DNA from: an uncultured Candidatus Kuenenia sp.
GTDB taxonomy: Bacteria > Planctomycetota > Planctomycetia > Pirellulales > UBA1268
Assembly: GCA_964581055.1 (NCBI GenBank)
Contig: CAZOMJ010000076.1
Span: 3,059 to 67,058 of the forward strand
Direction: 5' to 3'
DNA length: 64,000 nt
The position numbers and the translations under genes are program-made. The notes beneath the pieces were generated by a model, which worked only from the letters and a program-made list of their open reading frames with translations, searched no databases and was not told the DNA's origin. Every line of letters begins with the position of its first letter. Position 1 is the first letter of the stretch. Positions 1 through 29,090 of this stretch are shown here, one piece after another.

Positions 1-1
1 A

Positions 2-370
2 CTCCTGCCTCACTGGGCGAGCGAACTGGCGATGCGGCTCGATTTCCCTTCATACGTGAAGGCGATCTATGCCGCTCCCGCAGCCTTGCCCGAGAGGCCG
101 CAGGAAACCTGGTTTCGGGATCTGCTCTCCTGGATGGTTTCAGTGGAAGGCGACATCGGCGTGAACCGAGTGCTGAGGTTCGAGCGACTGGGCGAGGAAT
201 TGGCCGCTTTGGCGGGCGAACTCCGCATCGAAGGGGAGCTGCCGTGGCGTAACGCCTCGCATGAGCCCCGCGGGCAACGGGACTACCGGGACCGCTACGA
301 CGCCACCTCGCGGCGCATCATTGAAACCCGCTTCGCGCCGACGCTCGAGCGGTTCGGCTACAGCTTCTGA
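2..370 (+). CDS. Sulfotransferase family protein, C-terminal part (5'-truncated by window edge)
   Basis: Frame open from base 2 to TGA at 370. The C-terminus 'VLRFERLGEEL...LPWRNASH...DYRDRYD..SRRIIETRFAPTLERFGYSF' resembles sulfotransferase family 2 C-termini. Lies next to other sulfotransferases. Confidence 0.55.
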   Translation, partial: LLPHWASELAMRLDFPSYVKAIYAAPAALPERPQETWFRDLLSWMVSVEGDIGVNRVLRFERLGEELAALAGELRIEGELPWRNASHEPRGQRDYRDRYDATSRRIIETRFAPTLERFGYSF

Positions 371-417
371 GAAGCCCAGCATGATGCCCAGCCCATCCTG
401 AAAGCCCGTCGCAGCGT

Positions 418-1233
418 TTAGCGTGCGATGAATTGCAAACGCGGGAATCTGTGTCGCAAAGACAGATCGTAAACCGCGCGATTTTTGCCATAGGAGTTGT
501 CCTTCAGAACGACGGGGATTTCGAGAAGGCTCCCGGCAATCGCCACATGCAGCCTGTCCGTGTGAATTTCGGAGTAGCCCGCAAGGGTGGCGAGAAAGGC
601 GCAGGTGTTCGCGTGGATGGAGTCCGTGCTGTTGAGTGGCGGATGGATCAAGCCCGGAAGGTCGAACGTATCATCCTCCAGCGGGCCGTCCGATTCGATA
701 TCCCGTCGATAGGCGCGGAGTACTCGATGCTCCCGGCCGAGCGCGATCGCATCGCGAATGGCCTTCACCGTTGAAAAAGGGTCCCTGGTGAGGTCGAGGC
801 CGATAGCCATGTCGTCTGCCGACAGTGCCCTGACGCCTGGAAAGCCGTCCAGGAATTCTAGGGATTGCCGGTCGCGACAGAAAACGGTGACTCCCTCGAT
901 GGCCCTCCAGAAGGCCGCATGCCCGTTGACCGTGTGCGGCAGGACAACGACGGGCGCAGGGAGCTTCAGCAAGGATGCCACGCACTGGATACCGCCCTCG
1001 TAAAGCGAAACGAGGCTGCCTCCACCGCCGAAGACGAGCAGGTCCGCAGGCCGTACGGAATCGCGCTGGCCACGAATGAAAGCCCAGGGGATGCCGGCTT
1101 TTTCAAAGCCCTGGATGGTGGCCGACGCGATGAGACAGTCGCCAAGATTGCCGCCGTTCGGCATGAACAGGCAGCGGCCGCCCTCACCGAGGCGGTTGGC
1201 GATGTGCTCCAGCGGATCATGGCGTTCAAGCAT
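418..1233 (-). CDS. Polysaccharide pyruvyl transferase family protein
   Basis: Motifs GGNLGDCLI, FGGGGSL and TDRLHVAIAGSLLEIPVVLKDNSYGKN are typical of EpsI/WcaK-like pyruvyltransferases. Confidence 0.8.
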   Translation of the reverse strand: MLERHDPLEHIANRLGEGGRCLFMPNGGNLGDCLIASATIQGFEKAGIPWAFIRGQRDSVRPADLLVFGGGGSLVSLYEGGIQCVASLLKLPAPVVVLPHTVNGHAAFWRAIEGVTVFCRDRQSLEFLDGFPGVRALSADDMAIGLDLTRDPFSTVKAIRDAIALGREHRVLRAYRRDIESDGPLEDDTFDLPGLIHPPLNSTDSIHANTCAFLATLAGYSEIHTDRLHVAIAGSLLEIPVVLKDNSYGKNRAVYDLSLRHRFPRLQFIAR

Positions 1234-2152
1234 TGTTCCAGCGCGACTCGAGTTCGCGCATCATGGAGCCGGCGGCATCGTCGGCGATTTTACGGAGAAA
1301 CAATTTTCCGGCGGGAACGGCAGGCAACTCATCCAGCGAACGGAAAACGAAAGGAACCGGGTTACGGGTCACATCGGTAAGCATCGGCCCCGTGAAGGAT
1401 CGAGCTGTCAGACCAATCCGGTTCGCATACAGCGTCTGGAAGGCCAGTTCGTCGGGCACGGCGGAGAATTCAAACGATTCACGCAGCCAAGGGTCTTCCG
1501 AAAGGTCGTCCAGGATGGCCTCGAGCATCCGCCGCTCGAGGGTCCACCACTGCGATCCCCCCCACACCTCAGGCAACGGGAATTTTCCCCGTTCGCGCAA
1601 CCCGGCAAGCCGCTGGATCGCACCGAGCGAAGCTGCGTCGAATGAGCGGTTTTGAATATCGACTGGGCGAGCGTTCGTCGCCGGGGAATCCATGAAAAAA
1701 AATTCCGTGTAGCGTCTCAGGAATGGCGGGTTCCGTCGCGACATCGCCACATCGATGCGGTTGGGCAGGGAAACGAGATGCCGATGAATTTCACCGGCCG
1801 GGAGCAAGGGAAGCGTGTCATCCGAAACCAAGGCCACAATCCGGCAGCCACCATCGCGGAGAGCGCTGCGGGCGAGCGCCTCAGTGGCCCGGATCATGTT
1901 GAACCCGGCCCAGAACACCTCGAACCGTTGCTCGATGAACGTCAGGTTGGAAGGCCACGCTCGCTCCCGCGAATAGTCGACCAACGGAATCTTGGCATCC
2001 AAGTGGACGAAAATCCGGAAGGGACTCTCGGAGAAGTTTCCTGCGAGGGCTTCGAGCGTCCGCGGCGACTGGCAGGCCAAGACGAGCAGCGCCACCTCCT
2101 CGAGCCCCTTTTCGGATGTCGCAAAAGCCGCCTTCATTCGTAGAGCATCCAC
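1226..2152 (-). CDS. Beta-1,6-N-acetylglucosaminyltransferase (Core-2/I-branching, GT14-like)
   Basis: 'IFVHLDAK', 'VFWAGFNMIRAT..L', 'GGSQWWTL' and 'AVPDELAFQTL' match the branching-enzyme family. Overlaps both neighbours, consistent with an operon. Confidence 0.75.
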   Translation of the reverse strand: MDALRMKAAFATSEKGLEEVALLVLACQSPRTLEALAGNFSESPFRIFVHLDAKIPLVDYSRERAWPSNLTFIEQRFEVFWAGFNMIRATEALARSALRDGGCRIVALVSDDTLPLLPAGEIHRHLVSLPNRIDVAMSRRNPPFLRRYTEFFFMDSPATNARPVDIQNRSFDAASLGAIQRLAGLRERGKFPLPEVWGGSQWWTLERRMLEAILDDLSEDPWLRESFEFSAVPDELAFQTLYANRIGLTARSFTGPMLTDVTRNPVPFVFRSLDELPAVPAGKLFLRKIADDAAGSMMRELESRWNNA

Positions 2153-2895
2153 TCGAATCGCGATCCCTCGAGAGCAGCGGCCACCTCATCGAAATTCGCA
2201 ATCAGGCTTTTTGCATTGTCAGGCAGGATTTTTTTGATATCCACCGACATATGAGCTTCGGGAAGCCCGAGAAAATCCAGAACGCAGCGCATGGCTGGGC
2301 CGTTGTCATCCAGCGAGTCCTCGAAGGCCACCTCGTGAAACGGATGGTCATGGAAACGCCTTCGCATCCTTTCAGACTCGGCCTCGATCGCATCGAGGTT
2401 GGCGAGCAGCACTGCAGGGGGGATCTCCATGCGCGGCGGCGGGGGAACCTCCTCGTTCGTAAGGAAGAAATTTTTCCGGCTGACGGTTCCAACGAAATAT
2501 TCGGAGAGAAACCGTTTGACGCCGTTCCGCCGCACCAAATGGATCACGCGGATGTCGTCGTCCGCAGCGAGCGCGTCCAGCAATCCCGGCCAGCACTCCG
2601 CCAGTTGGTGGTAGAGAATTTTAAATCCAACCGCGGATTCTCCGCCCACCGCGAAAACCCTTCTCATCGCGAAGCCTGCGGGGTCCGCGCCCCTCTCCTC
2701 GACCAAGATCCGGTGGCTCTCGGATCCCGGTTCGGCAAGCGTCGACAGGTTCCCGCCGAACACCTCGCCGTGGGAACGGGCCAACGGATGGGAGTCCAGC
2801 AGGCGCCGGAGACGCGTACTGCCGGTTCGGCCTGCGGCGAGGATGAAAAACCTCGTCGGTGTCGGCCGCCGCAACATATTTGAATCTGGCATCAT
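2134..2895 (-). CDS. Sulfotransferase (Stf0-like)
   Basis: PAPS-binding loop 'AAGRTGSTRL', 'SHGEVF', 'VGFKILYHQ', 'IHLVRRN', and C-terminal 'IKKILPD...IANFDEV..AL'. Confidence 0.75.
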   Translation of the reverse strand: MMPDSNMLRRPTPTRFFILAAGRTGSTRLRRLLDSHPLARSHGEVFGGNLSTLAEPGSESHRILVEERGADPAGFAMRRVFAVGGESAVGFKILYHQLAECWPGLLDALAADDDIRVIHLVRRNGVKRFLSEYFVGTVSRKNFFLTNEEVPPPPRMEIPPAVLLANLDAIEAESERMRRRFHDHPFHEVAFEDSLDDNGPAMRCVLDFLGLPEAHMSVDIKKILPDNAKSLIANFDEVAAALEGSRFEWMLYE

Positions 2896-2919
2896 GAGAA
2901 CTCATTCTATAAGCACCCC

Positions 2920-5900
2920 ATGCCCAAGCAACCATTTCCAAGCCGCCGCCAGATGAACCGTCAGACACTCCCACGACCGGTCATGCTCCTTGTCCTCGGT
3001 GTTCACCGGTCGGGGACGAGTGCGACGGCGCGGATGCTGGAGTGCCTCGGCGGGCGTCCATCGACACACCTCCACGAACCACTCCCGAACAATCCCAAGG
3101 GGTTTTTCGAGGATTTCGATATCCAGCGATTCAACGAATACGAACTCTTGCCGGCGCTCGGCGCTCGTTGGCATGATGTGACGCCGTTGGACTGGACAAG
3201 GCTGTCCGACGAGTCCAGGGCTGAGCTTTCGGCAAAAGCCGTTGGGATCGTCGGGAAGAATTTCAGCCGTGACAATTCACTTTCGATCTTGAAGGAGCCG
3301 CGTCTCGGCATTTTGCTTCCGTTCTGGCTCGCCGTGCTGGAGGAGGCCGGCTTCGAGGTGAAAGCCGTTTGCACGGTGCGCGACCCCCTGAGCGTCGCGC
3401 GTTCGCTGCACGCGAGGGACGCGTTTTCCATCACCCACGGAGCGATGCTTTACGCCTCGAACTGGCTGGCCACCCTGCAGTCACTCGGAAACGTCCCGAC
3501 GTCTTATCTCTCGTTCGACTCCATCTTCCGTGACGCGCGGGGGGGTCTGGAACGGTTGGCCCGGGAACTCGGCATTCCTCTGCCGCAGGATTTCGACGCA
3601 CGCATCGAGGACTTTGTATCGGACCACCTCGACTCCGGCCTGCGACACAGCATTGCCTCGGCGGAGGAAGTGACGGGCGACCCTCGGATCCCGCCGGTGG
3701 CCGCGGCTGTTCATGCCACCCTTCTCGACGCGGTCGATTCACATGCGCGGCGCGATGCGATGGACCGCCTCTCGGCCTGGGCGACGAGGCACTCAGACTC
3801 GGTGCCCCTGTTGCACGACTACGACCGGCTTTTCCGTGATCGCGCCACGTTGCTGCAAACCGCGATCAACCACGAAAACGAAATCGCCGGTTTGAGGGAC
3901 CATCTGGCGAACACCGAGGCCGAGCGGGATGTGACGAGTCGCGACCAGAAAGTCGCCGAGCGTGACGATTCACTCAATGAACTGAGGAGCCTCCTGTTGG
4001 AGCGGAATGGAGAGGTAGCCGCATTGACTGATGAGTTGGCCGATCGCAAGACGACTCTTTCCAGCTTGCAGGCGATCATCGAGGATCTCACCCGCGAGGT
4101 CGTCGAACGGGAGTCCGCTGTCCAGGAGCTGGAGAAGAACCTCCTGGCAACTAATGATTCGCTGGTCGAGAAGGAAGTCGCACTGTGTTCTGCGAAGGAT
4201 CGAACGGTGGAACTCCTCGAATCACTGGCTCAGGCCGAGGCACAGAACGCCCGTTTGGCCGATGCGATTGCCAGTCTGGAATCCAGGCTGGAATCGCAGC
4301 GGGCCGAAGACGAAAAACGGGAAGCGACGATTCAGCACCTGGTGCTTGCTCTTTCTTCCACCCGTACAACCACATGGTCACGCGTGACAGCGCCGGTTCG
4401 ATGGCTTGCCGAAGCGGTGGGAACCAGTCCGCTCGGATTGTCCAGGGCGATGCGAGAGATTCGTGAAAGCGGGCTGTTCGACCCCGTCTTCTACTTGCTG
4501 AAACATCCCGATGTGCGCGACTCCGGTGTCGATCCGCTGAAACACTACCTTCTTCACGGAGGCCACCAGGGACGAAATCCCTCCCCGCTTTTCGACAGCC
4601 ACTTCTACCTCGATCAATACGTCGATGTGCGGGCCTCCCGAATCAACCCGCTCCTGCACTACATCCGCTTCGGCCGTGCCGAGGGGCGGTTGCCAGTACC
4701 GCATCATCAACTCGCCGCCGAACCGCCACCCTCTGAAACCCCGGTAGCCCGCGACATCCGGATTATTCGTGAAAGCGGTCGCTTCGATGCCGCCTACTAC
4801 CTGGAGCAGCATCCCGATGTGAGACATGCTGGCGTCGATCCAATCGAGCATTTCGTTTGGCACGGGTGGAAGGAGGGGCGGAACCCTTCGCCGTTTTTCG
4901 ACACTCGCTTCTACCTCCGCATCTACCTCGACAGCGATCTCGCGGGAGACAATCCACTCCTCCACTTCATCCAGAAGGGCCAAGCCGAGGGGAATTTCGC
5001 CTCCGAGGCGCACCGGGCTGAAGCCCGCCGAGTCTACGGGCAAGCGTACTGGAACCGACTTCTAACCTACCTGGTCAACGGAAGCTCGTTGCCTGCAATC
5101 GGCCGGTTTTTCCGGAAACTGGTCTCCATTGGTCCCGACGAAGTCGCCAGGGACTTCCGCGAGCGTGCGACACATGCTGGGCAAGGACTCGGAGAAGATG
5201 CCGCTTCGACCGGCGATCGACTGCCGTCGCGTGAGTCGTTACCCGAGTCTGGAACCATCCTGTTTATCGGGTGCAACGGGCTGCTCGCCGGTTCGCAAGT
5301 TGTCCTCCTCAACATCATCAAGTGGCTCCATGCCCACACGACGCTGGACGTGAAAATCATCCTGCTATCAGGCGGAGAATTGCTCCCCGAGTATGCCACC
5401 TACGGCTCCGTTGTTGTCTGGCAGGAATTGGCGTTGCAGCTTCCCGACGTCAACACACGCCGGGAGCACCTTGCCGCCTGGTGTGGCAAGGTCGATCTGG
5501 TGTATGGCAACACCATCCTGGCGGCGACCATCTACGAGGAAATGGAATTCCTGGGAGCGCCCTTTCTGAGCCACGTCCACGAACTGGAACAAACGATCCG
5601 CGCCTACGCTCAACCGCACACCATCGATACCTTCCAAAGTCTGACATCGGAATTCATCGCATGCTCGCCTCCAGTGGCGGCGAACCTCGTTGAGAATCAC
5701 CGGGTGTCGTCCTCCCGCATCCATACGGTCAACGCCTTCATCGAGAACCGCGCGTCGATCGCAGCAAACGCAAAGCGGGGTCTGCGGAAAACGTTGGGCC
5801 TGCGGGAACGGGAGTTTGTGGTGGTGGGCTGCGGCACCATCTACGCACGCAAGGGAGTCGACCTGTTCGTCGACACGGCGGTGAAGCTCAAGGAAAGCGG

Positions 5901-8439
5901 GGCACAAAAGTTCCGCTTCCTTTGGATCGGTGACCATTACTGGGATTTCGATCCCCAATCACGCCGCTTGATGGCCTGGAACAGCATCGAGGCAACGATC
6001 CGAAAGCACGGAATGGAGGACCTGATCGAATTCCCAGGGGTGAAGACGAATGCCCGTGAATATTTCGCCGCGGCCGATGTCTTCTATCTCCCCTCGCGAG
6101 AGGATCCCTTTCCACTCGTCTGCCTCGAAGCCGCGCAGTGTGGCACTCCGGTCGTGTGTTTTGACAAGGCTGGCGGGATGCCGGCGTTTGTGGAAACCGA
6201 CGCAGGCCTCGTTGTTCCACATCTGGATGTCGATGCCGCCGTCGCCGCAATCAAACGACTCAAGGACGATGCTCGGCTTTGCAATCGACTCGGCACGGGA
6301 GCCGCTTCCAAACTCGCGCGGCTCCACACGGACGACATTGCCGTTCCAGAAATCCTGAAGATCTGTCGTAAAGCGATGAGAACGGGCCCGATGGTCAGCG
6401 TCATCGTCCCGGTATTCAACCACGGCCGATTTCTTGTCCAGCGGATGGAGAGCATTCTGTCCCAGTCCTTCCGCGACTTCGAAATCATCATTTTGGACGA
6501 CGCCTCGACCGACGACAGCTTCGAGGTGGCGAGGAGGTACGAGGGGCACCCCCAGGTGCGCATAGCCCGCAACGAGCACAATTCCGGCTCCCCCTTCCGC
6601 CAATGGAAAAAAGGCCTCGAACTCGCGCACGGAACAATCGTTTGGATTGCGGAGGGGGATGACGCCAGCGAACCCGATTTTCTTCGCCGGTTGCTCCCCT
6701 TCTTCCGCGACCCTGAAGTCGCGATCGCCTACTGCGACTCGAAGGTCATCGACGAAAATGGGCACTCCCTCGAAAATTACGAGGCCTACTACGAGTCGCT
6801 CGACTTCAGCCATTGGAAGATGGATCGGCTCCTGTCTGGCGAAGCGGAGATCAATTTCGGACTTGGCGTCAAAAACACCATCCCAAACACGAGCGCCGCC
6901 CTCTTCCGCCGGGAATTCATCGATTCGGCGATGCTCGAAAACATAAGCTCCATGCGTTATTCAGGCGATTGGTTTTTTCATGTCCAGATGGTCAAGGGCC
7001 GCAAAATCGCCTTCCGTCGCCTGCCGCTGAACCTCCACCGCAAGCACGCCTCCACACTCACGCACCAGTTCAATCGCAACGAGACGCAGCAACATGCCCT
7101 CCTTGACGAAGCCAGGCGGGTGCATGAATACGTGCTGGCGAATTACACGCCCACCCCTTCCTTTCGCAGGAAACTCGCTTTCTACCTAAACGATCAGATC
7201 GAGTCGCTCTTTCACGGAACCCCGAAATCCCAGCACGACCGACTCTACCCGGTTACCCGGACCCTCGAGGCCGTGGATCGCGCCATTGCGGCTTCATCGC
7301 CCCTGGCGACACGCATGGCCTTCATCACCACCGGCGATGTCACGCACGACGGCGGCAGCGAACAACTCTGGATTCAGACCGCACTCCGCATGGCCCGCAC
7401 GGGACACCGTGTCTTGGTCGTTATCAAGCGATGGTCACCCGAGCCGTATTTCTTCGCCGAATTTCGCGACGCGGGAATTGAACTCGTCTTCAAGGACAGC
7501 AAGCCTGTGGAACGATTGGTTGATTTTTCCCCCCACCTCGTGGTGATCAACATCGGCGACCAGGACGAAGGAATTGATTGGTATGCCGCCTGCCGGGCGA
7601 ATGGACTGCGCTACACGATCGTCAACCACCTGACGAAGGAGCCCAGATACTGGCCGATCCGCCCCGAACTGCAGGACGCAGTCCGCGAAGGCAACCTTGG
7701 TGCTGCTCAGGTGCTATTCACTTCCCAAAACAACCGCGCCCTGCTCGAGAAGCGCCTCGGCTGCGCCATCCCGCATGCCGGCGTTTTCCACAACCCGATT
7801 TACATCGACCGCACGAAGCGACTGCCCTTTCCATCCATGGACGGCCCCATCCGGCTCGCGATGCCCTCGCGACTGCTCACCATTCACAAGGGCCAGAACA
7901 TCGCGATCGAGGTGTTCTCCAGGAAGAAGTGGCGCAACCGCAACATCCAACTCCACATCTACGGCAACGGCCCCGATGAGGCCTCCCTGCGTGACACAGT
8001 CGCACGCGAAGATCTCACGAATGTCTTTTTTCACGCCCCCAATTGGCAACTCCCCACACCCGACATGGAATCCATCTGGCGCGACAACCATGCGCTGCTC
8101 ATGACCTCCTTCATGGAGGGCATGCCTCTGGTTCTGCTCAACGCCATGTTCTACGAACGCGTCGCGATCGTCACGGATATCGGCGGCCACCGCGAGGTGG
8201 TCCAGGACGGCATGAGTGGCTTCATCGCCGCCGAGCCAAGTCCCGACGCGGTGGATAGAGCCATGGAGAACGCCTGGCGCAGCCTTGGCACATGGGAACA
8301 AATCGGACGCCGCGCCCGCACCCGCATGCTTCAATTCGCGCCAGAGGACCCCGTCGCGGACTTTATCGAGAAACTGTCCTATTTGTCCAAGGTGGCCGCA
8401 CGTGATCCCACGGGCCTCGCTTCTCACACAACTGGCTGA
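2920..8439 (+). CDS. Giant multidomain glycan synthase: sulfotransferase-like domain, coiled coil, two FDxxxYL repeat modules, GT4, GT2, GT4
   Basis: 1839 aa. N-terminal 'GVHRSGTSA..NPKGFFED..LKEPR'; heptad-rich helix at ~aa300-480; repeats 'FDPVFYL.KHPDV..DPL.HY..G..GRNPSP.FD'; GT4 'RKGVDLF..SREDPFPLVCLEA'; GT2 'VSVIVPVFNH..LDDASTD'; second GT4 'SFMEGMPLVLLNAM'. Start could also be 2953 or 2983. Confidence 0.9.
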   Translation: MPKQPFPSRRQMNRQTLPRPVMLLVLGVHRSGTSATARMLECLGGRPSTHLHEPLPNNPKGFFEDFDIQRFNEYELLPALGARWHDVTPLDWTRLSDESRAELSAKAVGIVGKNFSRDNSLSILKEPRLGILLPFWLAVLEEAGFEVKAVCTVRDPLSVARSLHARDAFSITHGAMLYASNWLATLQSLGNVPTSYLSFDSIFRDARGGLERLARELGIPLPQDFDARIEDFVSDHLDSGLRHSIASAEEVTGDPRIPPVAAAVHATLLDAVDSHARRDAMDRLSAWATRHSDSVPLLHDYDRLFRDRATLLQTAINHENEIAGLRDHLANTEAERDVTSRDQKVAERDDSLNELRSLLLERNGEVAALTDELADRKTTLSSLQAIIEDLTREVVERESAVQELEKNLLATNDSLVEKEVALCSAKDRTVELLESLAQAEAQNARLADAIASLESRLESQRAEDEKREATIQHLVLALSSTRTTTWSRVTAPVRWLAEAVGTSPLGLSRAMREIRESGLFDPVFYLLKHPDVRDSGVDPLKHYLLHGGHQGRNPSPLFDSHFYLDQYVDVRASRINPLLHYIRFGRAEGRLPVPHHQLAAEPPPSETPVARDIRIIRESGRFDAAYYLEQHPDVRHAGVDPIEHFVWHGWKEGRNPSPFFDTRFYLRIYLDSDLAGDNPLLHFIQKGQAEGNFASEAHRAEARRVYGQAYWNRLLTYLVNGSSLPAIGRFFRKLVSIGPDEVARDFRERATHAGQGLGEDAASTGDRLPSRESLPESGTILFIGCNGLLAGSQVVLLNIIKWLHAHTTLDVKIILLSGGELLPEYATYGSVVVWQELALQLPDVNTRREHLAAWCGKVDLVYGNTILAATIYEEMEFLGAPFLSHVHELEQTIRAYAQPHTIDTFQSLTSEFIACSPPVAANLVENHRVSSSRIHTVNAFIENRASIAANAKRGLRKTLGLREREFVVVGCGTIYARKGVDLFVDTAVKLKESGAQKFRFLWIGDHYWDFDPQSRRLMAWNSIEATIRKHGMEDLIEFPGVKTNAREYFAAADVFYLPSREDPFPLVCLEAAQCGTPVVCFDKAGGMPAFVETDAGLVVPHLDVDAAVAAIKRLKDDARLCNRLGTGAASKLARLHTDDIAVPEILKICRKAMRTGPMVSVIVPVFNHGRFLVQRMESILSQSFRDFEIIILDDASTDDSFEVARRYEGHPQVRIARNEHNSGSPFRQWKKGLELAHGTIVWIAEGDDASEPDFLRRLLPFFRDPEVAIAYCDSKVIDENGHSLENYEAYYESLDFSHWKMDRLLSGEAEINFGLGVKNTIPNTSAALFRREFIDSAMLENISSMRYSGDWFFHVQMVKGRKIAFRRLPLNLHRKHASTLTHQFNRNETQQHALLDEARRVHEYVLANYTPTPSFRRKLAFYLNDQIESLFHGTPKSQHDRLYPVTRTLEAVDRAIAASSPLATRMAFITTGDVTHDGGSEQLWIQTALRMARTGHRVLVVIKRWSPEPYFFAEFRDAGIELVFKDSKPVERLVDFSPHLVVINIGDQDEGIDWYAACRANGLRYTIVNHLTKEPRYWPIRPELQDAVREGNLGAAQVLFTSQNNRALLEKRLGCAIPHAGVFHNPIYIDRTKRLPFPSMDGPIRLAMPSRLLTIHKGQNIAIEVFSRKKWRNRNIQLHIYGNGPDEASLRDTVAREDLTNVFFHAPNWQLPTPDMESIWRDNHALLMTSFMEGMPLVLLNAMFYERVAIVTDIGGHREVVQDGMSGFIAAEPSPDAVDRAMENAWRSLGTWEQIGRRARTRMLQFAPEDPVADFIEKLSYLSKVAARDPTGLASHTTG
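4459..5001 (+). repeat. Intragenic duplication of a ~79-aa module (4459-4695 and 4765-~5001, 306-nt period)
   Basis: Both units begin attcgtgaaagcgg (IRESG.FD..YYL..HPDV..G.DP..H) and each contains two FDxxxYL sub-motifs. Confidence 0.85.
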
Positions 8440-8502
8440 TCACCCGAGGGACCAACCCATTCACGCGACCACACGGCGTTTCATCATGAGGGGCCCATCC
8501 AC

Positions 8503-9501
8503 TTGAGCACACCAGCGAAGAGCCTGTTTGTCACGAAAGTGACCAGCGCGCATGTGTTGGAGGCGATTGCACAACACCTGACCGCGAAGCAGGTGGCCGT
8601 CATCCTTTTCGATGGCCACGGGGAAATCAACGGCATCGATGACGACCCTCGCGTGAGGCTTGTCATCGACGTGCGCGAAGCGCCCCCGACGATCTTGGAT
8701 TCCTTACACGAGGGCGATGTTGTGATTTATGCATGCACCCAAGACGATCTGGGACTGCCTTACATCGCGCATCTCCACAAGACCGGGAGAAAATATTATC
8801 CGATTTGGAGCGCCCGCCCGGGCGGCTATGCGTTCACGAATTGCATTGCGAGGCAGGTGTTGGACGATGAGCATCGATTTCAGAGGCGGCACGGATTCGC
8901 GAAGTGGGACTTTGGCCACGGCGATTTCGTCAATCTCATTCAGGCTCTCGAAATCACCAAGAATGTAGCTGGATGCTATCTGGAAGTCGGCTGCTATCGA
9001 GGCTCAAGTGCGGGTGTGGTCCTGCGCTATCTGGCCGCCACGCGCCGCCCGATGGAAACATTTTTCCTCGATGTCTTCGAGGGTTTTGCATACGAGGCGT
9101 CCCACGATAGTGCGGATGCGGTGTGGCACGGCACGCACCAGACGGATGGCTTCGAGGCTGTGAGTGAACGCTTGCAAGCGTACCGGAACGGCTTTCCCGA
9201 TCTGCACATCACGGTCGAACGAAACAATATCATTACAGACCCGCTGCCGGCAGGTGTCCTTGAGCGGGGAATCTCGCTTGCCAATTTGGATGTCGATCTC
9301 CACGAGGCCGTCTATGCGGGACTGCACAAACTGGCGCCTCACGTTGCGAAGAACGGGATCCTTGTTGTCGAAGACCCGGGACACACGCCGTTGCTGATTG
9401 GGGCCAAATACGCCCTCGATAAGTTCCTGGCGGACGAAATTGGCACGCACTTCATATCACTCTGCATGGAAAGTGGGCAGACTTTTTTGATTCGGAAATG
9501 A
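8503..9501 (+). CDS. TylF/MycF/NovP-family SAM-dependent O-methyltransferase
   Basis: SAM motif 'YLEVGCYRGSS', 'LDVFEGF' and 'NLDVDLHE', with a ~130-aa N-terminal extension. Confidence 0.75.
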   Translation: MSTPAKSLFVTKVTSAHVLEAIAQHLTAKQVAVILFDGHGEINGIDDDPRVRLVIDVREAPPTILDSLHEGDVVIYACTQDDLGLPYIAHLHKTGRKYYPIWSARPGGYAFTNCIARQVLDDEHRFQRRHGFAKWDFGHGDFVNLIQALEITKNVAGCYLEVGCYRGSSAGVVLRYLAATRRPMETFFLDVFEGFAYEASHDSADAVWHGTHQTDGFEAVSERLQAYRNGFPDLHITVERNNIITDPLPAGVLERGISLANLDVDLHEAVYAGLHKLAPHVAKNGILVVEDPGHTPLLIGAKYALDKFLADEIGTHFISLCMESGQTFLIRK

Positions 9502-9724
9502 CAGCTTCACTGAGAGACATGGCACGAATTGGGCGATCCGCCGGTTCCCGGCAGCGGATTGGCTCTCCGAATCGAAGATCGCCCATGAAAGCGATCAGTT
9601 TCATTGCGTCGCTTGGTTTGAGACATTTTGTCCGGACTCCTCGCCTTTGCATCCGGATCTGGGTGCCAGGGGACATTCCGTCGCATCGATTGCACGAACG
9701 TCCTGCGCACAGGAACCTTGATTG

Positions 9725-11179
9725 ATGGTCTTCAGCTCAGTCGCATTTCTGTTTTTCTTCCTGCCGGCCACGCTGCTTCTCTTTTATGCGGCGAATGAGC
9801 GGTTGCGTTTCTGGATTCTGCTGCTGGCGAGTTTGTTTTTTTATTTTTACGGTGAGAACTATCTCATCCTCGTCATGCTCGCCACAACGGCGATCGACTA
9901 TCTATGTGGCCTGATGATCGCCGGGAGTGCGCACCGTCTGCAGGAGGGAGGGCCGCGGAGTCGCACGCAGCGGCGGTGGCTGATGACTTCCGTCGTCTCG
10001 AACCTCGCGCTTTTGGGCTACTTTAAGTACTTCAACTTTTTCACCCACAGCCTGATCGAGATGCTCCGCGCCCTTGGCCTTGGACCTATGCGTTTGGACG
10101 GTTTCGTGCAGGTGGCGCTGCCTCTGGGGATCAGCTTCTACACGTTCCAGTCGATGAGCTACACGATCGATGTGTATCGGGGGCATGTCGCGGCGAACCG
10201 AAATCTGCTGACATTCTCGACCTTCGTGACAATGTTCCCGCAGCTCGTGGCGGGGCCGATCGTACGGTATGCCGACATCGAGAAACAGCTGCTTGCGCCA
10301 CGTGAGACGACTGCACAATTCGCCGAGGGCGTGCGGCGTTTTTTGGGCGGACTGGCGAAGAAGGTGCTGATCGCGAACCCCATGGGAGAAGTGGCGGACA
10401 AGATTTTTGCGATCCAGGGAGGGGAACTCTCCACGGGGATCGCCTGGGTGGGGCTGCTCGCGTACACGCTGCAGATCTATTTTGATTTCTCTGGTTACTC
10501 GTGCATGGCGATCGGGCTTGGAAAAATGTTCGGGTTCGATTTCCCAGAAAACTTCAACTTTCCCTACATATCCCGATCGGTTCGGGAATTTTGGCAGCGG
10601 TGGCACATCACGCTGTCCACCTGGTTCCGGGATTATGTCTATTTCCCGCTCGGCGGCAGCCGGGGCTCGGAACGACAAACATGGCGAAATCTCTTCATCG
10701 TGTTTCTCACCTGTGGACTCTGGCACGGTGCGAGCTGGAATTTCGTCCTTTGGGGACTTTTTCACGGGCTTTTCATTTCCCTCGAGAGGACGAGACTCGG
10801 CTCGATTCTTTCAGCACTTCCGCCGCTTTTTCGTCATGCGTATCTGCTTCTGGTTGTCATGCTCGGCTGGGTATTCTTTCGATGCGAAACAGTATCGGAT
10901 GCCATGGTGTATGTGCAACGCTTGCTGATTGTTCGGAGCACACGCCCCCAGACCATCGCCGCGTTTCTAAGCCCCGATGTGATCTTCATCATGGTGTGCG
11001 GACTGCTTTTTTCCATGCCGGTGGTTCCGTGGTTACGAGCACGGATCAATGGCCTGACTGGTGCACCGAGAGCCGCGTCCGAGATTGTGTGGATGGCTTG
11101 CACGTTCGGACTATTCCTTCTGAGCGTCGCGAGCCTTGCCTCTGGCAGCTACAACCCGTTCATCTATTTTCGGTTCTGA
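9725..11179 (+). CDS. MBOAT family O-acyltransferase (AlgI-like)
   Basis: 'MVFSS..FLFFFLP', 'LPLGISFYTFQSMSY', 'QIYFDFSGYSCMAIG', 'FWQRWHITLSTWFRDYVY', 'GLWHGA' and C-terminal 'SYNPFIYFRF'. Confidence 0.92.
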   Translation: MVFSSVAFLFFFLPATLLLFYAANERLRFWILLLASLFFYFYGENYLILVMLATTAIDYLCGLMIAGSAHRLQEGGPRSRTQRRWLMTSVVSNLALLGYFKYFNFFTHSLIEMLRALGLGPMRLDGFVQVALPLGISFYTFQSMSYTIDVYRGHVAANRNLLTFSTFVTMFPQLVAGPIVRYADIEKQLLAPRETTAQFAEGVRRFLGGLAKKVLIANPMGEVADKIFAIQGGELSTGIAWVGLLAYTLQIYFDFSGYSCMAIGLGKMFGFDFPENFNFPYISRSVREFWQRWHITLSTWFRDYVYFPLGGSRGSERQTWRNLFIVFLTCGLWHGASWNFVLWGLFHGLFISLERTRLGSILSALPPLFRHAYLLLVVMLGWVFFRCETVSDAMVYVQRLLIVRSTRPQTIAAFLSPDVIFIMVCGLLFSMPVVPWLRARINGLTGAPRAASEIVWMACTFGLFLLSVASLASGSYNPFIYFRF

Positions 11180-11183
11180 AGTC

Positions 11184-13217
11184 ATGCAACGTGTCGTCAA
11201 CTATTGTTTCATTGCGATCTTCTGCGGTGCACTGGCGATCGTGCCGCTGTTTTTCGCTTTGGGACTTCGCGTTCAATCCCCCGGGGCTTTTCTCCAGTTT
11301 GATCAACGTCCGCGCAGCTCGCTGGCGCAACCGGGCTGGGATCGCGAGTCACTGAGGACTTACTTCGGGTCTTTCGAGCGATTTCTCTCTGACCGGTTGC
11401 CGTTTCGCGAGGACCTCCTCAAGACGAGGGCATACGTCAACCTGAGGTTTGGAAAGCTGCTCAACCCCGAGGTCGTTGTTTTGGGAAAAAACGGCTGGCT
11501 GTTCTTTGGAAACGCCGTGGGCCGCGGGATCGATCAACACCGCGGACTGGCCCCCATGGACCCCAGGCAACTGGACGCGTTCCAGCGATACTTCAGCGAC
11601 ATCCACCGGCACCTGGAGCAAGCGGGCATTCCCTTTCTGGTCGTCATTGCACCGGACAAGCACACCATCTACCCGGAATTCCTTCCGAGCCATCTTTCAC
11701 AAAAAGGCGTCTCGCCGGCCGATCAGATCATGGCTCACCCGATGGGGTGTGAGATTCTGGACCTGCGCCCGGTGCTCCTCGGGCATAAAAACAAGTCGTC
11801 ACCGCCCCTCTATTACAAAACGGATTCCCACTGGAACGAGTACGGTGCCTACCTCGCCTACAGGAGCATCATGATGCGGCTACCTTTGGGTGCGCCGGTC
11901 GAGGCACGAGAGGATGACTTCGTTCAATTGCCGGTGACAGGAAAGGGGGACCTCGCTGTCAAGGTTGGCGGGGCGGTTTCCTTCTCCGATTCACTCACTC
12001 ACATCCGCCGGAATTTCTTCCGGGGAACACTCGAAGTCGAAAATCTCAACGATGGGAGTCTTGCCAAACAGAACCGGATCGAGATGAACCGGGTGTCACA
12101 ATTCCACTCTCTGAAAGTCTCGAATCCCGACAAGTCGGGATCCATTCTGCTCCTCGGCGACTCTTTTCTGGACAATCTTACGCGTTTTTTCAACAACACC
12201 TTCGGCCATACCGTGTATCAGCACTACACGGAGTTCGGGACAGCGAGCATCGGCCGGCTCGTTGCGGATGTCCAACCGCAGGCAGTGGTTTTTGTGATCG
12301 TGGAGCGGAATCTCATTCTGCCCGTCTCAAGATTCATTCCGGACTCGGGTGCGACGGGTTCCAAAACCGAACCACAGAGCGGCTCCACGGCATCCGCGAA
12401 AACGAACTGCGGACCATCATCGGTGCTGATCCCAAACGACAGACTTTTTTCGGACTCGAGCTTCGTTCGTGGCATCGAGAGTGTCCGTGCGGAGCAGGGC
12501 GGAGTCTTCTTCACCTCGACCGGAAACGACCCCTATTTCCATCTGCCACAGGCTCCGCCAATGCCGGAGGGGGCGACGGTGGCGATCGAACTCACACTGC
12601 CCGCAGAGAGGCTTGTTCAGCTCTTCTATCAAACCACCGAGACTCCGACGTTTACGGAAGAGAATTCCGAGAAAGCAATCCTCCCAGCTGGTCGCCACCG
12701 CCTCGAGTGGCCCATCAAAGCGTCGTTGAACGGTGTCTTCCGCCTCGATCCAGGCAATGGACCTGGTAACTACCAGATCCACAAGGTGGAGTTTTGTCCT
12801 TCGTTGTCGTCCGGTGCCCGGAAGTCCTCCACGGCTTTCACGTTTGCCAATGAGAAACTGCTCGCGGAATCAAGCTTTGTTCACGGAATGGAAAACGTGC
12901 GATTGCAGCAAGACGCACTCTGCTTCACCTCGGTCGGTGACGATCCCCATTTCTATCTGCCCCCGGCTCCGCCTATGCCGAAGGGAGCCACGGTGGCGAT
13001 CGACCTCACGCTGCCCGCAGAGAGATTGGTTCAGCTTTATTATCAGACCGCCGACAGGCCGGAGTTCACCGAGGAACATTCCGTCACAAAAGCCCTTCCT
13101 CCCGGCCGTCATCTCCTCGAGTGGCCGATCAAGGCCTCCCTCAATGGTGCCTTTCGCCTCGACGCAGGGAACGGTCCGGGTGAGTATCGCGTTCACAAAG
13201 TGGAAATCCGCCCGTGA
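11184..13217 (+). CDS. AlgJ/AlgX-like SGNH O-acetyltransferase with two tandem C-terminal beta-sandwich-like domains
   Basis: N-terminal TM; 'VVLGKNGWLF', 'IAPDKHTIYPE', 'YYKTDSHWN' and 'GDSF'. ATG 5 nt after the MBOAT stop. Confidence 0.82.
   Translation: MQRVVNYCFIAIFCGALAIVPLFFALGLRVQSPGAFLQFDQRPRSSLAQPGWDRESLRTYFGSFERFLSDRLPFREDLLKTRAYVNLRFGKLLNPEVVVLGKNGWLFFGNAVGRGIDQHRGLAPMDPRQLDAFQRYFSDIHRHLEQAGIPFLVVIAPDKHTIYPEFLPSHLSQKGVSPADQIMAHPMGCEILDLRPVLLGHKNKSSPPLYYKTDSHWNEYGAYLAYRSIMMRLPLGAPVEAREDDFVQLPVTGKGDLAVKVGGAVSFSDSLTHIRRNFFRGTLEVENLNDGSLAKQNRIEMNRVSQFHSLKVSNPDKSGSILLLGDSFLDNLTRFFNNTFGHTVYQHYTEFGTASIGRLVADVQPQAVVFVIVERNLILPVSRFIPDSGATGSKTEPQSGSTASAKTNCGPSSVLIPNDRLFSDSSFVRGIESVRAEQGGVFFTSTGNDPYFHLPQAPPMPEGATVAIELTLPAERLVQLFYQTTETPTFTEENSEKAILPAGRHRLEWPIKASLNGVFRLDPGNGPGNYQIHKVEFCPSLSSGARKSSTAFTFANEKLLAESSFVHGMENVRLQQDALCFTSVGDDPHFYLPPAPPMPKGATVAIDLTLPAERLVQLYYQTADRPEFTEEHSVTKALPPGRHLLEWPIKASLNGAFRLDAGNGPGEYRVHKVEIRP
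12435..13208 (+). repeat. Tandem 360-nt (120-aa) domain duplication: 12435-12794 and 12849-13208
   Basis: Units share 'F..DP.F.LP.APPMP.GATVAI.LTLPAERLVQL.YQT...F.EE.S....LP.GRH.LEWPIKASLNG.FRLD.GNGPG.Y..HKVE' and clear DNA-level similarity. Confidence 0.95.
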
Positions 13218-13436
13218 CCAAGGACGCCCTACTCACCAACTACAGCCAGCGCTTCCGTGAGGCAGCGGCCCGTTGAGCTGATCCGCGGAAGCAAAACGTC
13301 GACGAGGCGAGACGAGCGGTTCAGGTCGAGCAGCGTCTTCACGCCACCGTTCCCGAGAGCCACCGCTCACGCTCGGCCGTGAACGCCAAGCAGGCCCGAA
13401 TGTCTTCGGAGGTCTGGTCCGGGCCCTTCCAAGGGA

Positions 13437-13638
13437 GTCGGTCTGCTCCGTCGCGCCGATCTTCTTGACCTCCTTTGTGACAGTCTTGCCTCTCCCCACC
13501 TCAACCTCGACCTCTCGAAGCTCAGGTGTGATCTGCTCAGTCAGTTCCTTCTTTCCGCGTGGCATTGGTTGCCTCCCTTGGTTTGCTCCACCTCCAGATT
13601 CTCTCTCTGGAAGCGGTGCCGTTTAAGGGGGGCAGGTC
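13437..13638 (-). mobile_element. IS3-family (IS407-like) remnant: left end plus truncated orfA
   Basis: Minus strand begins (c)GACCTGCCCCCC, resembling the TGACCTGCCCCC IS407-group end. It continues through RBS GGAGG into 'MPRGKKELTEQITPELREVEVEVGRGKTV..VKKIGATEQT', which resembles the OrfA HTH; similarity stops after TEQT. Confidence 0.75.
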
Positions 13639-15020
13639 GTAATCTCGTCACACTGCTGCCGGAGTCGGGCGACAATGTCCGGATGCTGCTTCGCAACATC
13701 CACCTGTTCGGCGGGATCGTTCTTTAGATCAAACAGTTGCATTGCAGCGGCGGCAATGCCGGCTTGCGCGCCGGGATACTCACTCGGCTGCGGTTGCTCA
13801 CGTGGCGCGACGATTGTCGTGCCGTCCGGTCCGCGAGGGTCCGTCCACTGACCGCCGCGTTTTGTGGCTCCAAGGAAGGGATCATTACCAGGCAAAACGT
13901 GCAGCTTCCACTGGCTGTCACGGATGAAGGCCGGCTTCTCGCCCTGAGCTCCAACAATTGCCTGATGTTCACTCGTCGCCGTGGTTGACGTAAACAGTGG
14001 CAGCAGATTGCGACCGTCGATAATACGATCCTGTGGCGCTGCGATGCCTGCAACATGGAGCACTGTCGCGAAGATATCCATCGTCACGGCCAACTCTTCG
14101 CTCGTGTGTCCGCCCGGGATTTTTCCCGGCCAGCGCGCAATGCAAGGGACTCGATGCCCACCCTCGTAAGTGCTGCCCTTCATGCCGCGAAGTCCGGCAG
14201 TGCTTCCTCCGTACCACGGCCCGTTATCGCTGGTGAAGAGCACGAACGTGTTCTCGTCCAGCTGCAGCGACCTGAGCTTCGCGAAGAGCTGCCCGACACC
14301 GGCATCCAGCTCCGCCAGCACATCGCCGTAAAGGCCGAGCTGCGTTTGACGATAAAACCTGTCGGATGCTGCCAGTGGCTTATGCGGCATGCTGTGCGGC
14401 AGGTAGAGAAAGAACGGACGCGAGCGGTTCTGTTCGATGAACGCCAGCGCGCGATCGGTGTATCGCTGAGTCAGCTTTGACTGATCGAGCGGGAACTCGG
14501 GATCGGGCTGAGTGCCTTCAAACAGCCTGACCGGCCGCATGTCGTTGGAGTAGGGGATGCCAAAGTAACTGTCAAAGCCGCGACTAGTCGGCAGCCACTC
14601 GGGCTTCGCATGTCCTAGGTGCCACTTGCCGACAATCGCCGTCGCATAGCCGGCCTGGCGAAAGAGTTGTCCGAGTGTGATTTCGGTTTCCGGCAGGTGC
14701 GTCTGGTCTGCGATCGCCCCCCCATCGGGAGCGGGGTTCGACGGCATTCCACAGCGAAATGGATACCGCCCCGTCAAGAGCGCCGCTCGGGTCGGAGCGC
14801 AGACCGGGCTCGGCGTGTTGAAGTGTGTGAGTCGAGCTCCCTCGGCGGCCATCCGATCCAGATGCGGTGTTCTGAACTTTGGATGTCCGTAGCAGCCGAG
14901 ATCACCATAACCAAGATCGTCCGCGAGAATGACGATCACATTGGGCGGGGCAGCAGTAACAGCCATGCACGTGCTCAGGAAGAGCAGGCCTGCGGCAAGA
15001 GCGTTTCTCAGCAGTGGCAT
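13623..15020 (-). CDS. Exported S1-family sulfatase (arylsulfatase A-like)
   Basis: Signal peptide, 'PNVIVILADDLGYGD', formylglycine motif CAPTR (CxPxR), 'GKWHLG' and 'SDNG'. Start set at MPLLRN. Confidence 0.93.
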   Translation of the reverse strand: MPLLRNALAAGLLFLSTCMAVTAAPPNVIVILADDLGYGDLGCYGHPKFRTPHLDRMAAEGARLTHFNTPSPVCAPTRAALLTGRYPFRCGMPSNPAPDGGAIADQTHLPETEITLGQLFRQAGYATAIVGKWHLGHAKPEWLPTSRGFDSYFGIPYSNDMRPVRLFEGTQPDPEFPLDQSKLTQRYTDRALAFIEQNRSRPFFLYLPHSMPHKPLAASDRFYRQTQLGLYGDVLAELDAGVGQLFAKLRSLQLDENTFVLFTSDNGPWYGGSTAGLRGMKGSTYEGGHRVPCIARWPGKIPGGHTSEELAVTMDIFATVLHVAGIAAPQDRIIDGRNLLPLFTSTTATSEHQAIVGAQGEKPAFIRDSQWKLHVLPGNDPFLGATKRGGQWTDPRGPDGTTIVAPREQPQPSEYPGAQAGIAAAAMQLFDLKNDPAEQVDVAKQHPDIVARLRQQCDEITTCPP

Positions 15021-15148
15021 CACCAGGGCTCCTGTGTGCGAACAAAAAGTTGGCGACTTGTGCCCTTCGTAAAACACCGCAAAAGCGAACGCAGGAAGGC
15101 GGGAAGCAGGACGAGTCAAGTGCCCCCATGAATGGCGACATGCTCTAA

Positions 15149-15902: not shown

Positions 15903-15976
15903 GCGCCCGTAGCTCAGGTGGATAGAGCATGGGATTTCTAATCCCAGGGTCGCTGGTTCGAGTCCAGCCGGGCGTA
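15903..15976 (+). tRNA. tRNA-Arg (anticodon TCT)
   Basis: GCGCCCG/CGGGCGT acceptor stem, D arm AGCTCAGGTGGATAGAGC, anticodon arm TGGGA-TTTCTAA-TCCCA, T loop GGTTCGAGTCC. CCA not encoded. Confidence 0.97.
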
Positions 15977-16074
15977 CTAGAAGTTTGGCGGGCACGATGC
16001 CCGCCCATCGAGAGCCGACGGAGGTCGGCCAAGCAAAGCGAGGCACGATGCCGAGGCTTTGCGTGAACACAGCC

Positions 16075-16455: not shown

Positions 16456-17235
16456 ATGATGGTCTATCTCCCGTGCCGCCCCCGTTTCAGAGTGTTGTAT
16501 CTCTTCGTGCTGGCGGTGGTCATATCCGTGGCCGGTGCGCCCGCCATTTCGTTCGCCGACGAACCGATGCCCGATGCTGCAACTCTGGAGGCTACGGAGA
16601 AGAAGGCGCTGCGTGGCGTCCTCACGCGGGAGCAGCAGGCTGCATACACGCCCCAGACGGTGCTGGACAACCTCCTGGCGGGCAATCGTCGCTTCGTGGC
16701 GAACAACCTCACGCAGCGGAACCACTCACAGCGGATCCGCGAGGCCTCCGAAGGCCAGTTTCCAAAGGCGGTGATTCTTTCCTGCCTCGACAGTCGCATT
16801 CCCGTGGAGGACGTCTTCGGTCTTGGCATCGGCGACATCTTCGTGGCCCGTGTCGCCGGGAACTTCGTCAACGAGGACATTCTCGGCAGCATGGAGTTTG
16901 GCTGCCATGTCGCGGGGGCGAAGGTGATCATCGTGATCGGGCATACCCAGTGCGGTGCCGTTAAAGCCGCGATCGACGACGTGAAGCTGGGCAACATCAC
17001 GCCCATGCTCGCCAAGATTCGGCCAGCGATCGAGAAGGGCAGGCCATTTGACGGCAAGAAGGGGAGCGACAACCCCGCCTATGTCGCCCACGTCTGCCGC
17101 GAGAACGTACGACTAGCCGTCGAGACCATCCGTGAACGCAGCGAGATCCTCCGCACGATGGAGGCCGACGGCTCGCTCAAGATCGTCGGGGCCTACTACG
17201 ATCTCCACTCCGGTGAAGTGACGCCGTTGCCGTGA
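16456..17235 (+). CDS. Beta-class carbonic anhydrase with signal peptide
   Basis: Zn ligands 'CLDSR' and 'GHTQCGAVKA', 'RVAGN', 'L..L..GNRRF'. Hydrophobic leader ending ...AISFA-DE. Start moved from 16282 to ATG 16456. Confidence 0.93.
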   Translation: MMVYLPCRPRFRVLYLFVLAVVISVAGAPAISFADEPMPDAATLEATEKKALRGVLTREQQAAYTPQTVLDNLLAGNRRFVANNLTQRNHSQRIREASEGQFPKAVILSCLDSRIPVEDVFGLGIGDIFVARVAGNFVNEDILGSMEFGCHVAGAKVIIVIGHTQCGAVKAAIDDVKLGNITPMLAKIRPAIEKGRPFDGKKGSDNPAYVAHVCRENVRLAVETIRERSEILRTMEADGSLKIVGAYYDLHSGEVTPLP

Positions 17236-17285
17236 CGCGGGCCGCGGCACACCACTCCCCGGCCCCGGAGACGCTGCAGCCCAGT

Positions 17286-17586: not shown

Positions 17587-17696
17587 TCCTCTCGGAGATC
17601 AGTGACGACTGGGAAACCGAACGCGCCTACCTGAACATGGAAGCCAGATGACCCGCCTCTGAAATCCGCGATTTACAGAAGAGGTGTTGCTTTACC
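17574..17696 (+). mobile_element. IS256-family remnant: transposase C-terminus and right end
   Basis: 'AVLSEISDDWETERAYLNMEAR*' resembles IS256 transposase C-termini. Followed by atttacagaagaggtgttgctttacc, an IS256-like terminal repeat. Confidence 0.7.
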
Positions 17697-22746: not shown

Positions 22747-22762
22747 GGGAGGCGGTATCCGC

Positions 22763-29079: not shown

Positions 29080-29090
29080 TGGTGGCCCTG

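Follow-up and report, generated by a model that had tools for sequence, protein, structure and literature searches.

What is the role of a protein in which a sulfotransferase-like domain, a long helical segment and three glycosyltransferase (GT) modules are joined on one polypeptide? The question is raised by an open reading frame (ORF) at positions 2920-8439 of a 64,000-nt stretch of DNA, called the window below, from an uncultured Candidatus Kuenenia sp. (assembly GCA_964581055.1, contig CAZOMJ010000076.1, positions 3,059 to 67,058 of the forward strand). An initial annotation, made from the sequence alone, proposed that the protein combines a polymerase, a molecular ruler and a capping enzyme, as in certain O-antigen systems that depend on an ATP-binding cassette (ABC) transporter, with sulfate as the cap. 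We have compared the protein, its relatives and their gene neighborhoods with characterized systems, and by analogy with those systems the balance of our observations leans toward a sulfotransferase-type terminator-ruler-polymerase for a heavily modified surface glycan. The domain order on which the proposal was built, namely a terminator-type enzyme followed by a coil and GT modules, was upheld.

The ORF runs from an ATG to a stop codon, and its codon-position GC content (0.64/0.43/0.72) fits a real gene. Its product of 1839 aa consists of the sulfotransferase (ST) domain, a coiled coil, two repeat modules and the series GT4-GT2-GT4, a description in which the ORF itself, Pfam, AlphaFold2 (AF2) and Foldseek agree with the initial annotation; coordinates are collected in Table 1. 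Hydropathy analysis in 19-residue windows identified no transmembrane (TM) segment anywhere in the protein, and we rejected its reading as a transmembrane synthase, the most hydrophobic window being the Rossmann beta1 strand of the first GT4 module. A public gene call of the identical protein, P0112, is 1801 aa long and begins at M39. The true start must lie upstream of M39, because the conserved 5'-phosphosulfate-binding (5'-PSB) loop sits at aa 27-34; loss of this loop through the M39 start also accounts for the precomputed Pfam list of P0112, which names GT domains only and no sulfotransferase. Within aa 1-38 (window 2920-3033), M12 and M22 are other possible starts, and a start at 2920 leaves a divergent gap of 24-42 bp to the adjacent ST gene. 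An NCBIfam search of the protein returned only sub-threshold GT matches. The best of these was to stp2 of the PEP-CTERM/XrtA system, and at 106 bits against a cut-off of 409 we have not accepted membership in that family.

To examine the N-terminal domain, we modeled aa 1-780 with AF2 from an alignment of 111 homologues. The segment aa 20-292 was modeled with pLDDT >90, and 8 of the 8 Foldseek matches in the PDB at E<=0.001, and likewise every match to E<=0.01, were sulfotransferases dependent on 3'-phosphoadenosine 5'-phosphosulfate (PAPS). Foldseek probability was 1.00 for OLS (4gox), tick TPST (8w5z), human TPST2 (3ap3) and the CurM ST (4gbm), with target-normalized TM-scores of 0.44-0.47. 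A profile made from 45 N-domain homologues recovered 4gox (E 8.7e-5) and 4gbm (E 6e-4) from the PDB in an alignment that passes through the 3'-phosphate-binding (3'-PB) motif. Residues G27 and R30-S31-G32-T33-S34 of the 5'-PSB loop, and R154, P156 and S162 of the 3'-PB motif, were invariant or conserved in at least 90% of sequences in both sets of homologues (111 and 45), as were N58, G61, E64, K125 and H243 in the family alignments. On sequence grounds, E64 and K125 are candidate catalytic residues, and the spacing R(PSB)...E...K...R-x7-S resembles that of Arg78, Glu99, Lys158, Arg183 and Ser191, which we take to be the catalytic residues of TPST2. Fold, family profile and motifs together confirmed that the sulfotransferase-like domain of the initial annotation has the predicted fold of a PAPS-type sulfotransferase, and that its cofactor motifs are intact.

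In structure and in profile, the N-terminal domain is matched best by the ST domains of TPST2, CurM and OLS (15-19% identity), which have in common with it an RSGT(S/T) 5'-PSB loop and an R-x-P-x5-S 3'-PB motif. Their substrates are a protein tyrosine or a polyketide beta-hydroxyl, and they have neither a coil nor GT modules as fusion partners. No similarity was detected between the fused ST and the adjacent stand-alone Sulfotransfer_3 enzyme, which fits a separate role for the fused domain.

The helical segment behind the ST domain was modeled as 2 helices, aa 295-336 and aa 342-478. The 183 residues of aa 296-478 include one Pro; L, E, A, R and D account for 61%. Hydrophobic periodicity peaked at 3.5 residues (z = 8.6), a value matched by none of 2000 shuffled sequences, and one uninterrupted heptad register could be followed over approximately aa 352-463. 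Model and periodicity thus confirmed that aa 295-478, which at ~184 aa agree with the ~180 aa first proposed, are predicted to form a real heptad coiled coil. With a rise of ~0.15 nm for each residue, a length of ~20 nm can be calculated for the long helix, and of ~27 nm for all of the coil if it were fully extended.

The order GT4-GT2-GT4 was recovered as well, each module scoring above its Pfam threshold and having sequence matches in the PDB. In the first GT4 module (GT4a), Pfam recognized Glyco_transf_4 over aa 791-938 and Glycos_transf_1 over aa 956-1128 (E 1.5e-44), and a motif of the (E/D)x7E type, EDPFPLVCLEA, lies at aa 1061. The GT2 match covers aa 1157-1364 (E 1.2e-24) and includes DDAS and GDD (DXD) motifs. 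Chondroitin synthase K4CP was the best PDB sequence match of this module, but we have not used its likeness to chondroitin and heparosan synthases as a sign of a glycosaminoglycan-like backbone, as the match covers the generic nucleotide-sugar-binding half only. The second GT4-like module (GT4b) has its Glycos_transf_1 stretch at approximately aa 1600-1780, with PDB sequence matches at aa 1599-1778, and is the best-conserved part of the protein among orthologues (Table 1). Its motif EGMPLVLLN (window ~8090-8120, aa ~1727-1736) reads EX7N instead of the usual EX7E and is kept in 11 of 11 orthologues; possibly, the activity of GT4b is atypical.

Between coil and GTs lie a short flexible segment and the repeat modules. 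AF2 confidence was low across aa 474-503. The family consensus directly after the coil is S-x-S-W-R-x-T-x-P-x-R, represented here by TWSRVTAPVRW, and this post-coil motif is present in most orthologues and in many relatives down to 28% identity. The segment may be a membrane- or partner-docking element, in a position comparable to the C-terminal region of WbdD. The 2 repeat modules of the initial annotation proved to be 52% identical to each other (E 5e-33). Module 1 consists of 2 half-repeats of the form FDxxFYLxxxPDVxxxGxDPLxHYxxxGxxEGRxP in a small helical domain, and the modules when modeled alone gave small helical domains at pLDDT 92.9. A fold search of the PDB yielded no match (best E 4.2), nor did Pfam or NCBIfam offer a family, and the repeat module seems to represent a hitherto undescribed domain in proteins of glycan assembly. 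The same module ends the stand-alone ST-coil proteins P0003, P0009 and P0025.

Besides the identical P0112, we found 11 full-length orthologues (47-72% identity) from metagenomes and from Phycisphaerales metagenome-assembled genomes (MAGs). As the initial annotation had anticipated, coil length varies among them, about five-fold, while the catalytic domains are constant in length (Table 1). In the wider family of ST-coil proteins, ~63 to ~494 aa separate the ST domain from the post-coil motif. A variable coil between fixed domains is expected of a length-determining spacer and consistent with one; yet a neutral linker would tolerate the same variation, and the observation is not proof.

We defined the wider ST family by an exhaustive profile search, in which counts are of cluster representatives: there were 29,155 at E<=1e-3 and 11,592 at E<=1e-30. 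Composition was assessed in the top 141 new representatives. The ST domain was almost always N-terminal in these, and the 5'-PSB and 3'-PB motifs were kept in 129 and 138 of the 141, respectively. Eighty representatives were at least 600 aa long and 43 at least 1000 aa; among the 105 of at least 450 aa, a Pro-free stretch of at least 80 aa followed the ST domain in 92, and the post-coil motif was found in 43. Modules in 7 long members were GT2, GT4, WbsX, RgpF, GT9 or methyltransferase. Proteins with a related N-terminal ST (28-48% identity) occur both in a WbdD-like, stand-alone ST-coil format and as ST-GT fusions. Of the stand-alone ST-coil proteins, P0025 is encoded beside Wzm and Wzt in a locus of the rhamnose type, Wzm is also present in the locus of P0014, and P0009 precedes a multi-GT protein of 1796 aa. 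As judged from these predicted proteins, the fused ST family is very large and uncharacterized, and consists mostly of an N-terminal ST followed by a coil and GTs.

Gene neighborhoods showed that the ST family is linked to ABC transporters, one orthologue included. This orthologue, P0117, has the same architecture at 53% identity and is encoded in a Phycisphaerales MAG (GCA_018883105.1; locus L014), where genes for ABC2_membrane (299 aa), ABC_tran (245 aa) and GT2 proteins directly precede it in the same orientation. Among more distant relatives, Wzm and a 468-aa Wzt with a Wzt_C domain are followed directly in L013 by P0037, a protein with ST, coil and a WsaF-type GT; in L012, Wzm and Wzt precede P0062 (ST-coil-GT4); and in L005, Wzm and Wzt adjoin an ST-coil protein. 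In Vibrio quintilis (L011; AP024897.1, 261408-284527), the order is a Wzt of 438 aa that bears Wzt_C, a stand-alone ST and then P0169, a 1039-aa ST-GT2 fusion annotated as 'hyaluronan synthase', whose N-domain is 34% identical to the fused ST (E 2e-30). A WecA-type gene also lies near P0169 in this locus.

The terminator-ruler reading rests on a rule drawn from characterized systems, that chain-terminating systems are characteristically marked by an extended coiled coil bearing the terminator distally (PMC11231755). The closest likeness is to WbbB of Klebsiella pneumoniae O12 and Raoultella terrigena, which works in an ABC-transporter-dependent pathway and also has an N-terminal terminator, a coil ruler and C-terminal GTs in one polypeptide (PMC11231755). 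The WbbB terminator, however, is a GT99 beta-Kdo (3-deoxy-D-manno-octulosonic acid) transferase and not a sulfotransferase; the two helical repeat modules are extra in the present protein; and the O12 Wzt has a carbohydrate-binding module (CBM) which the Wzt beside P0117 lacks. WbbB has two GT modules, of the GT1 and GT25 types, as against GT4-GT2-GT4 here. Terminator, coil and GT modules are likewise united in ORF6 of K. pneumoniae O7 (PMC11231755), which uses further, separate GTs, matching the separate GT14 in our locus and the separate GT2 in orthologous loci. Unlike our protein, ORF6 has a methyltransferase-kinase that adds methyl-phosphate as its terminator, an immunoglobulin-like CBM before the coil, and two GT2 polymerase modules. 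WbdD of Escherichia coli O9a and K. pneumoniae O3 and O5 shares the N-terminal terminator and the coiled-coil ruler; its coil length sets chain length, and its C-terminal region binds membrane and polymerase (PMC11231755). Its format recurs in the stand-alone ST-coil relatives P0009, P0014 and P0025, but its chemistry is that of a kinase/methyltransferase, its polymerase WbdA is a separate protein, and there is no sequence similarity to the protein described here. WbdD required a portion of its coil for folding. The best 60 of 85 PDB sequence matches included neither WbbB nor WbdD chains, nor did the 50 fold matches listed. As far as sequence comparison can tell, the resemblance to WbbB and O7 ORF6 is one of architecture and not of ancestry.

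Sulfation of glycans or glycolipids by PAPS-dependent enzymes is known in bacteria for NodH, Mesorhizobium loti KpsS and Stf0 (PMC11625862). These enzymes are stand-alone proteins that decorate internal or specific residues, with no coil or GT fusion, and no part in setting chain length has been proposed for them. Few characterized bacterial enzymes are named in a 2024 review on polysaccharide sulfotransferases, and the words 'fused' and 'non-reducing' are absent from its text (PMC11625862). In keeping with the initial annotation, which knew of no characterized example, the full-text literature that we searched contains no characterized or discussed sulfotransferase terminator; outside that literature, the census of Mann, Kimber and Whitfield (2019, Glycobiology 29:822) may list candidates. 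A paper on Aeromonas salmonicida left unexplained a stand-alone sulfotransferase-like ORF between wzt and wbbB.

We envisage the following scheme. The protein would be cytoplasmic and peripheral to the membrane, and would serve in assembly of a sulfated, pyruvylated, methylated and O-acetylated surface glycan. At the inner membrane face, its three GT modules would build up the backbone polymer on a polyprenol carrier, while the coil would keep the ST 15-27 nm away, such that only chains of sufficient length could reach it. The ST would then add sulfate to the last sugar, in the simplest case on the hydroxyl to which the next sugar would be joined, and elongation would stop. The stand-alone sulfotransferases, the pyruvyl transferase, the GT14 enzyme and the methyltransferase could decorate the chain in the cytoplasm. 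The finished chain would leave through a Wzm/Wzt-type ABC transporter encoded elsewhere in the genome, to be acetylated after export by the MBOAT and AlgX-like proteins. The post-coil W-R-x-T-x-P-x-R segment and the repeat modules may attach the coil base to partner enzymes or the membrane.

Several of our observations weigh against this scheme. The locus has at least 5 other sulfotransferases besides the fused ST, so that sulfation within the chain is certain and sulfate is not specific to a cap. Together with the pyruvyl, methyl and acetyl transferases, they point to a heavily decorated product, as would be expected under the main rival explanation, in which the fused ST decorates residues within the chain, and the coil serves only to oligomerize or scaffold the complex and has no role in chain length. 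Roughly one in four of the top family representatives is a short protein standing alone, and the occurrence of stand-alone members without a coil suits this explanation too. The coil model is of a monomer only, in which a hairpin could form at the aa 337-341 break. In addition, the 245-aa Wzt beside P0117, the only Wzt that adjoins an orthologue, has ABC_tran only and no CBM with which to read a cap, and the Wzt proteins of L005 and L012 are without CBM; a cap checkpoint read by a CBM is therefore not shown in this clade. The Wzt with C-terminal CBM that the initial annotation led us to look for was absent from the orthologue, Wzt_C being found only in the distant L011 and L013 loci. Yet the rival explanation leaves unexplained why one ST clade should be placed, in thousands of proteins, on the far end of a long and variable coil. 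An enzyme at that position is a terminator in every characterized case (PMC11231755), and two distant family members do adjoin Wzt with Wzt_C. We regard decoration within the chain by the fused ST as unlikely, if still the strongest of the competing explanations.

The wzm/wzt pair to be expected from the initial annotation was found beside P0117 and beside distant ST-GT proteins but not at the source locus: neither the 64-kb window nor the 7 kb upstream of it contains wzm/wzt, and we found no ABC transporter within reach in the orthologous loci L008, L010 and L015, which have the same kind of gene content. From these absences, it might be argued that the protein builds a lipid-linked repeat unit for a Wzx/Wzy- or synthase-dependent pathway and not a full polymer for ABC export. 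A pairing of MBOAT with an AlgX-like protein is typically seen with synthase-dependent polymers, and in L006, a related locus from Phycisphaerales, homologous sulfotransferases have genes of the Wzy_C and WecA types as neighbors. However, no Wzx, Wzy, Wza/Wzc or initiating transferase was found in the window or the 7 kb upstream; among five orthologous loci there was no Wzx, Wzy, Wzc/Wza or membrane-embedded synthase; and the GT2 module is without TM helices. The wzm-wzt pair of L014 stands immediately upstream in the same orientation as the orthologue, and coil-bearing multi-GT fusions are the signature of the ABC pathway (PMC11231755); assembly of a repeat unit is thus improbable. Less probable still is that the N-terminal domain is a degenerate or non-glycan ST-like P-loop domain, regulatory or nucleotide-binding, that sulfates no polymer. 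Pfam placed Sulfotransfer_3 at aa 24-222 with 20.5 bits, below the 27-bit gathering threshold, so that on Pfam alone the ST assignment is doubtful; the TM-scores are moderate; and gluconokinase and dephospho-CoA kinase appear lower among the Foldseek matches. But throughout the family the residues that would bind PAPS, like the Glu and Lys that are candidates for catalysis, are invariant, the matches at E<=0.01 are all genuine PAPS sulfotransferases, and homologues pass the same Pfam threshold (P0240, 34.1 bits; P0248, 53.3 bits), and we give this explanation very little credence.

A sulfotransferase-type terminator-ruler-polymerase accordingly remains the explanation we prefer. We advance a more general reading tentatively and with somewhat less than even confidence: sulfation may be a widespread chain terminator, an ST-coil-GT family of >10,000 clusters may cap glycans exported by ABC transporters and set their length, and in Planctomycetota the system may operate without a CBM-bearing Wzt, with termination then uncoupled from the export checkpoint. 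Control by a coil ruler with a terminator has been established for three capping groups only, namely methyl, methyl-phosphate and beta-Kdo. If our preferred explanation is true, a sulfotransferase terminator would be a fourth capping chemistry and, by the size of the family, could be among the commonest forms of terminator; a function would be assigned to a very large uncharacterized branch of bacterial sulfotransferases. To our knowledge, the envelope glycans of Planctomycetota are little characterized, and sulfated surface glycans of defined length would be expected there. The same proteins would supply parts for engineering sulfated glycans of set length. V. quintilis, a cultured relative with Wzt_C-bearing Wzt, stand-alone ST and ST-GT2 fusion, would be a practical system in which to test for a sulfate cap.

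Table 1. Features of the 1839-aa protein and of its locus. The last two columns refer to the 11 orthologues.
Feature	Window position	Strand	Residues (aa)	Basis or remark	Length in orthologues (aa)	Identity to 1839-aa protein
Whole ORF	2920..8439	+	1839 in all	ST, coiled coil, two repeat modules, GT4-GT2-GT4; soluble		
PAPS-type sulfotransferase domain (predicted)	2977..3795	+	20-292	AF2, Foldseek, profile, motifs	271-275	48-71%
5'-PSB loop GVHRSGTS	2998-3021	+	27-34	Motif		
3'-PB motif RDPLSVARS	3379-3405	+	154-162	Motif		
Coiled coil (predicted)	3802..4353	+	295-478	AF2, heptad periodicity	59-286	16-54%
Flexible segment with post-coil motif TWSRVTAPVRW	4357..4428	+	480-503	AF2 pLDDT 30-46		
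Repeat module 1	4429..4689	+	504-590	Self-comparison, AF2		
Repeat module 2	4741..4995	+	608-692	Self-comparison, AF2		
GT4a (GT-B, retaining family)	5245..6339	+	776-1140	Pfam, PDB sequence matches	364-368	47-76%
GT2 (GT-A, inverting family)	6367..7029	+	1150-1370	Pfam, PDB sequence matches	221	49-83%
GT4b (second GT4-like module)	7360..8349	+	1481-1810	Pfam, PDB sequence matches	330-331	60-83%
Sulfotransfer_2-type gene	2..370	+		3' end; runs off window start		
Polysaccharide pyruvyl transferase	418..1233	-				
GT14 'Branch' glycosyltransferase	1226..2152	-		Core-2/I-branching type		
Stand-alone Sulfotransfer_3 enzyme	2134..2895	-		Transcribed divergently from the 1839-aa gene		
TylF-like O-methyltransferase	8503..9501	+				
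MBOAT membrane O-acyltransferase	9722..11179	+				
AlgX-like SGNH O-acetyltransferase	11136..13217	+		Two C-terminal GxDPYF...RLDPGN modules		
Sulfatase	13623..15119	-		Last gene of glycan island with low third-position GC; signal-peptide-like N-terminus, by eye		
tRNA-Arg(TCT)	15903-15977			Close beyond downstream end of island		

The glycan genes of the window (positions 1-15119) have third-position GC values of 0.66-0.76, as against 0.79-0.90 for most downstream genes. An identical Joint Genome Institute contig, L007, extends 7 kb upstream of the window and adds two more sulfotransferases, small ORFs and a Ser/Thr kinase gene, the last of which is the upstream boundary of the cluster. The cluster looks like a horizontally acquired island. 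A relative of the partial Sulfotransfer_2-type protein at its window edge is present at 57% identity in a Phycisphaerales MAG.

In 4 of the orthologous loci, a gene for a protein of 294-299 aa lies just after, or slightly overlaps, the 3' end of the large gene (L008, 15637-16521; L010, 15412-16299; L014, 9748-10647; L015, 11740-12639). Its products in L008 and L010 have a PSB-like P-loop, GPHK(T/S)GTTS. The window lacks this gene, and there the large gene is directly followed by that of the TylF-like methyltransferase. The AlgX-like protein contains, at aa ~445-690 (12460-13217), two copies of a ~110-aa module of the form GxDP(Y/H)F...LP...VQLxYQT...LNGxFRLD(P/A)GN. The module matches no Pfam family and may be glycan-binding; in L008 it occurs in separate ORFs (16490-17146 and 17243-18436) and at the end of a third (22601-23929).

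The rest of the window is occupied by housekeeping genes and others unrelated to glycan export, among them 2-oxoacid dehydrogenase complexes, a chemotaxis operon and a TPR protein. Two complete 2-oxoacid dehydrogenase sets lie in tandem on the minus strand at 23242-35081, in the order E1o-E2-E3 and then pyruvate dehydrogenase-type E1-E2-E3. With proteins of Planctomycetota MAGs, the 2-oxoglutarate dehydrogenase E1 of the window shares 83-87% identity, in keeping with an uncultured planctomycete as the source. A 348-aa, Arg-rich ORF without family match (36706-37752, plus strand), which directly follows a tRNA-Leu (36611-36692), is probably not a real gene. Lastly, Rfam reported a group II intron match (RF00029) on the minus strand at 17286-17358, with 42.9 bits against a gathering threshold of 40; it falls in a region of ~1 kb (17235-18244) where our ORF filter kept no gene, and may be an intron remnant.

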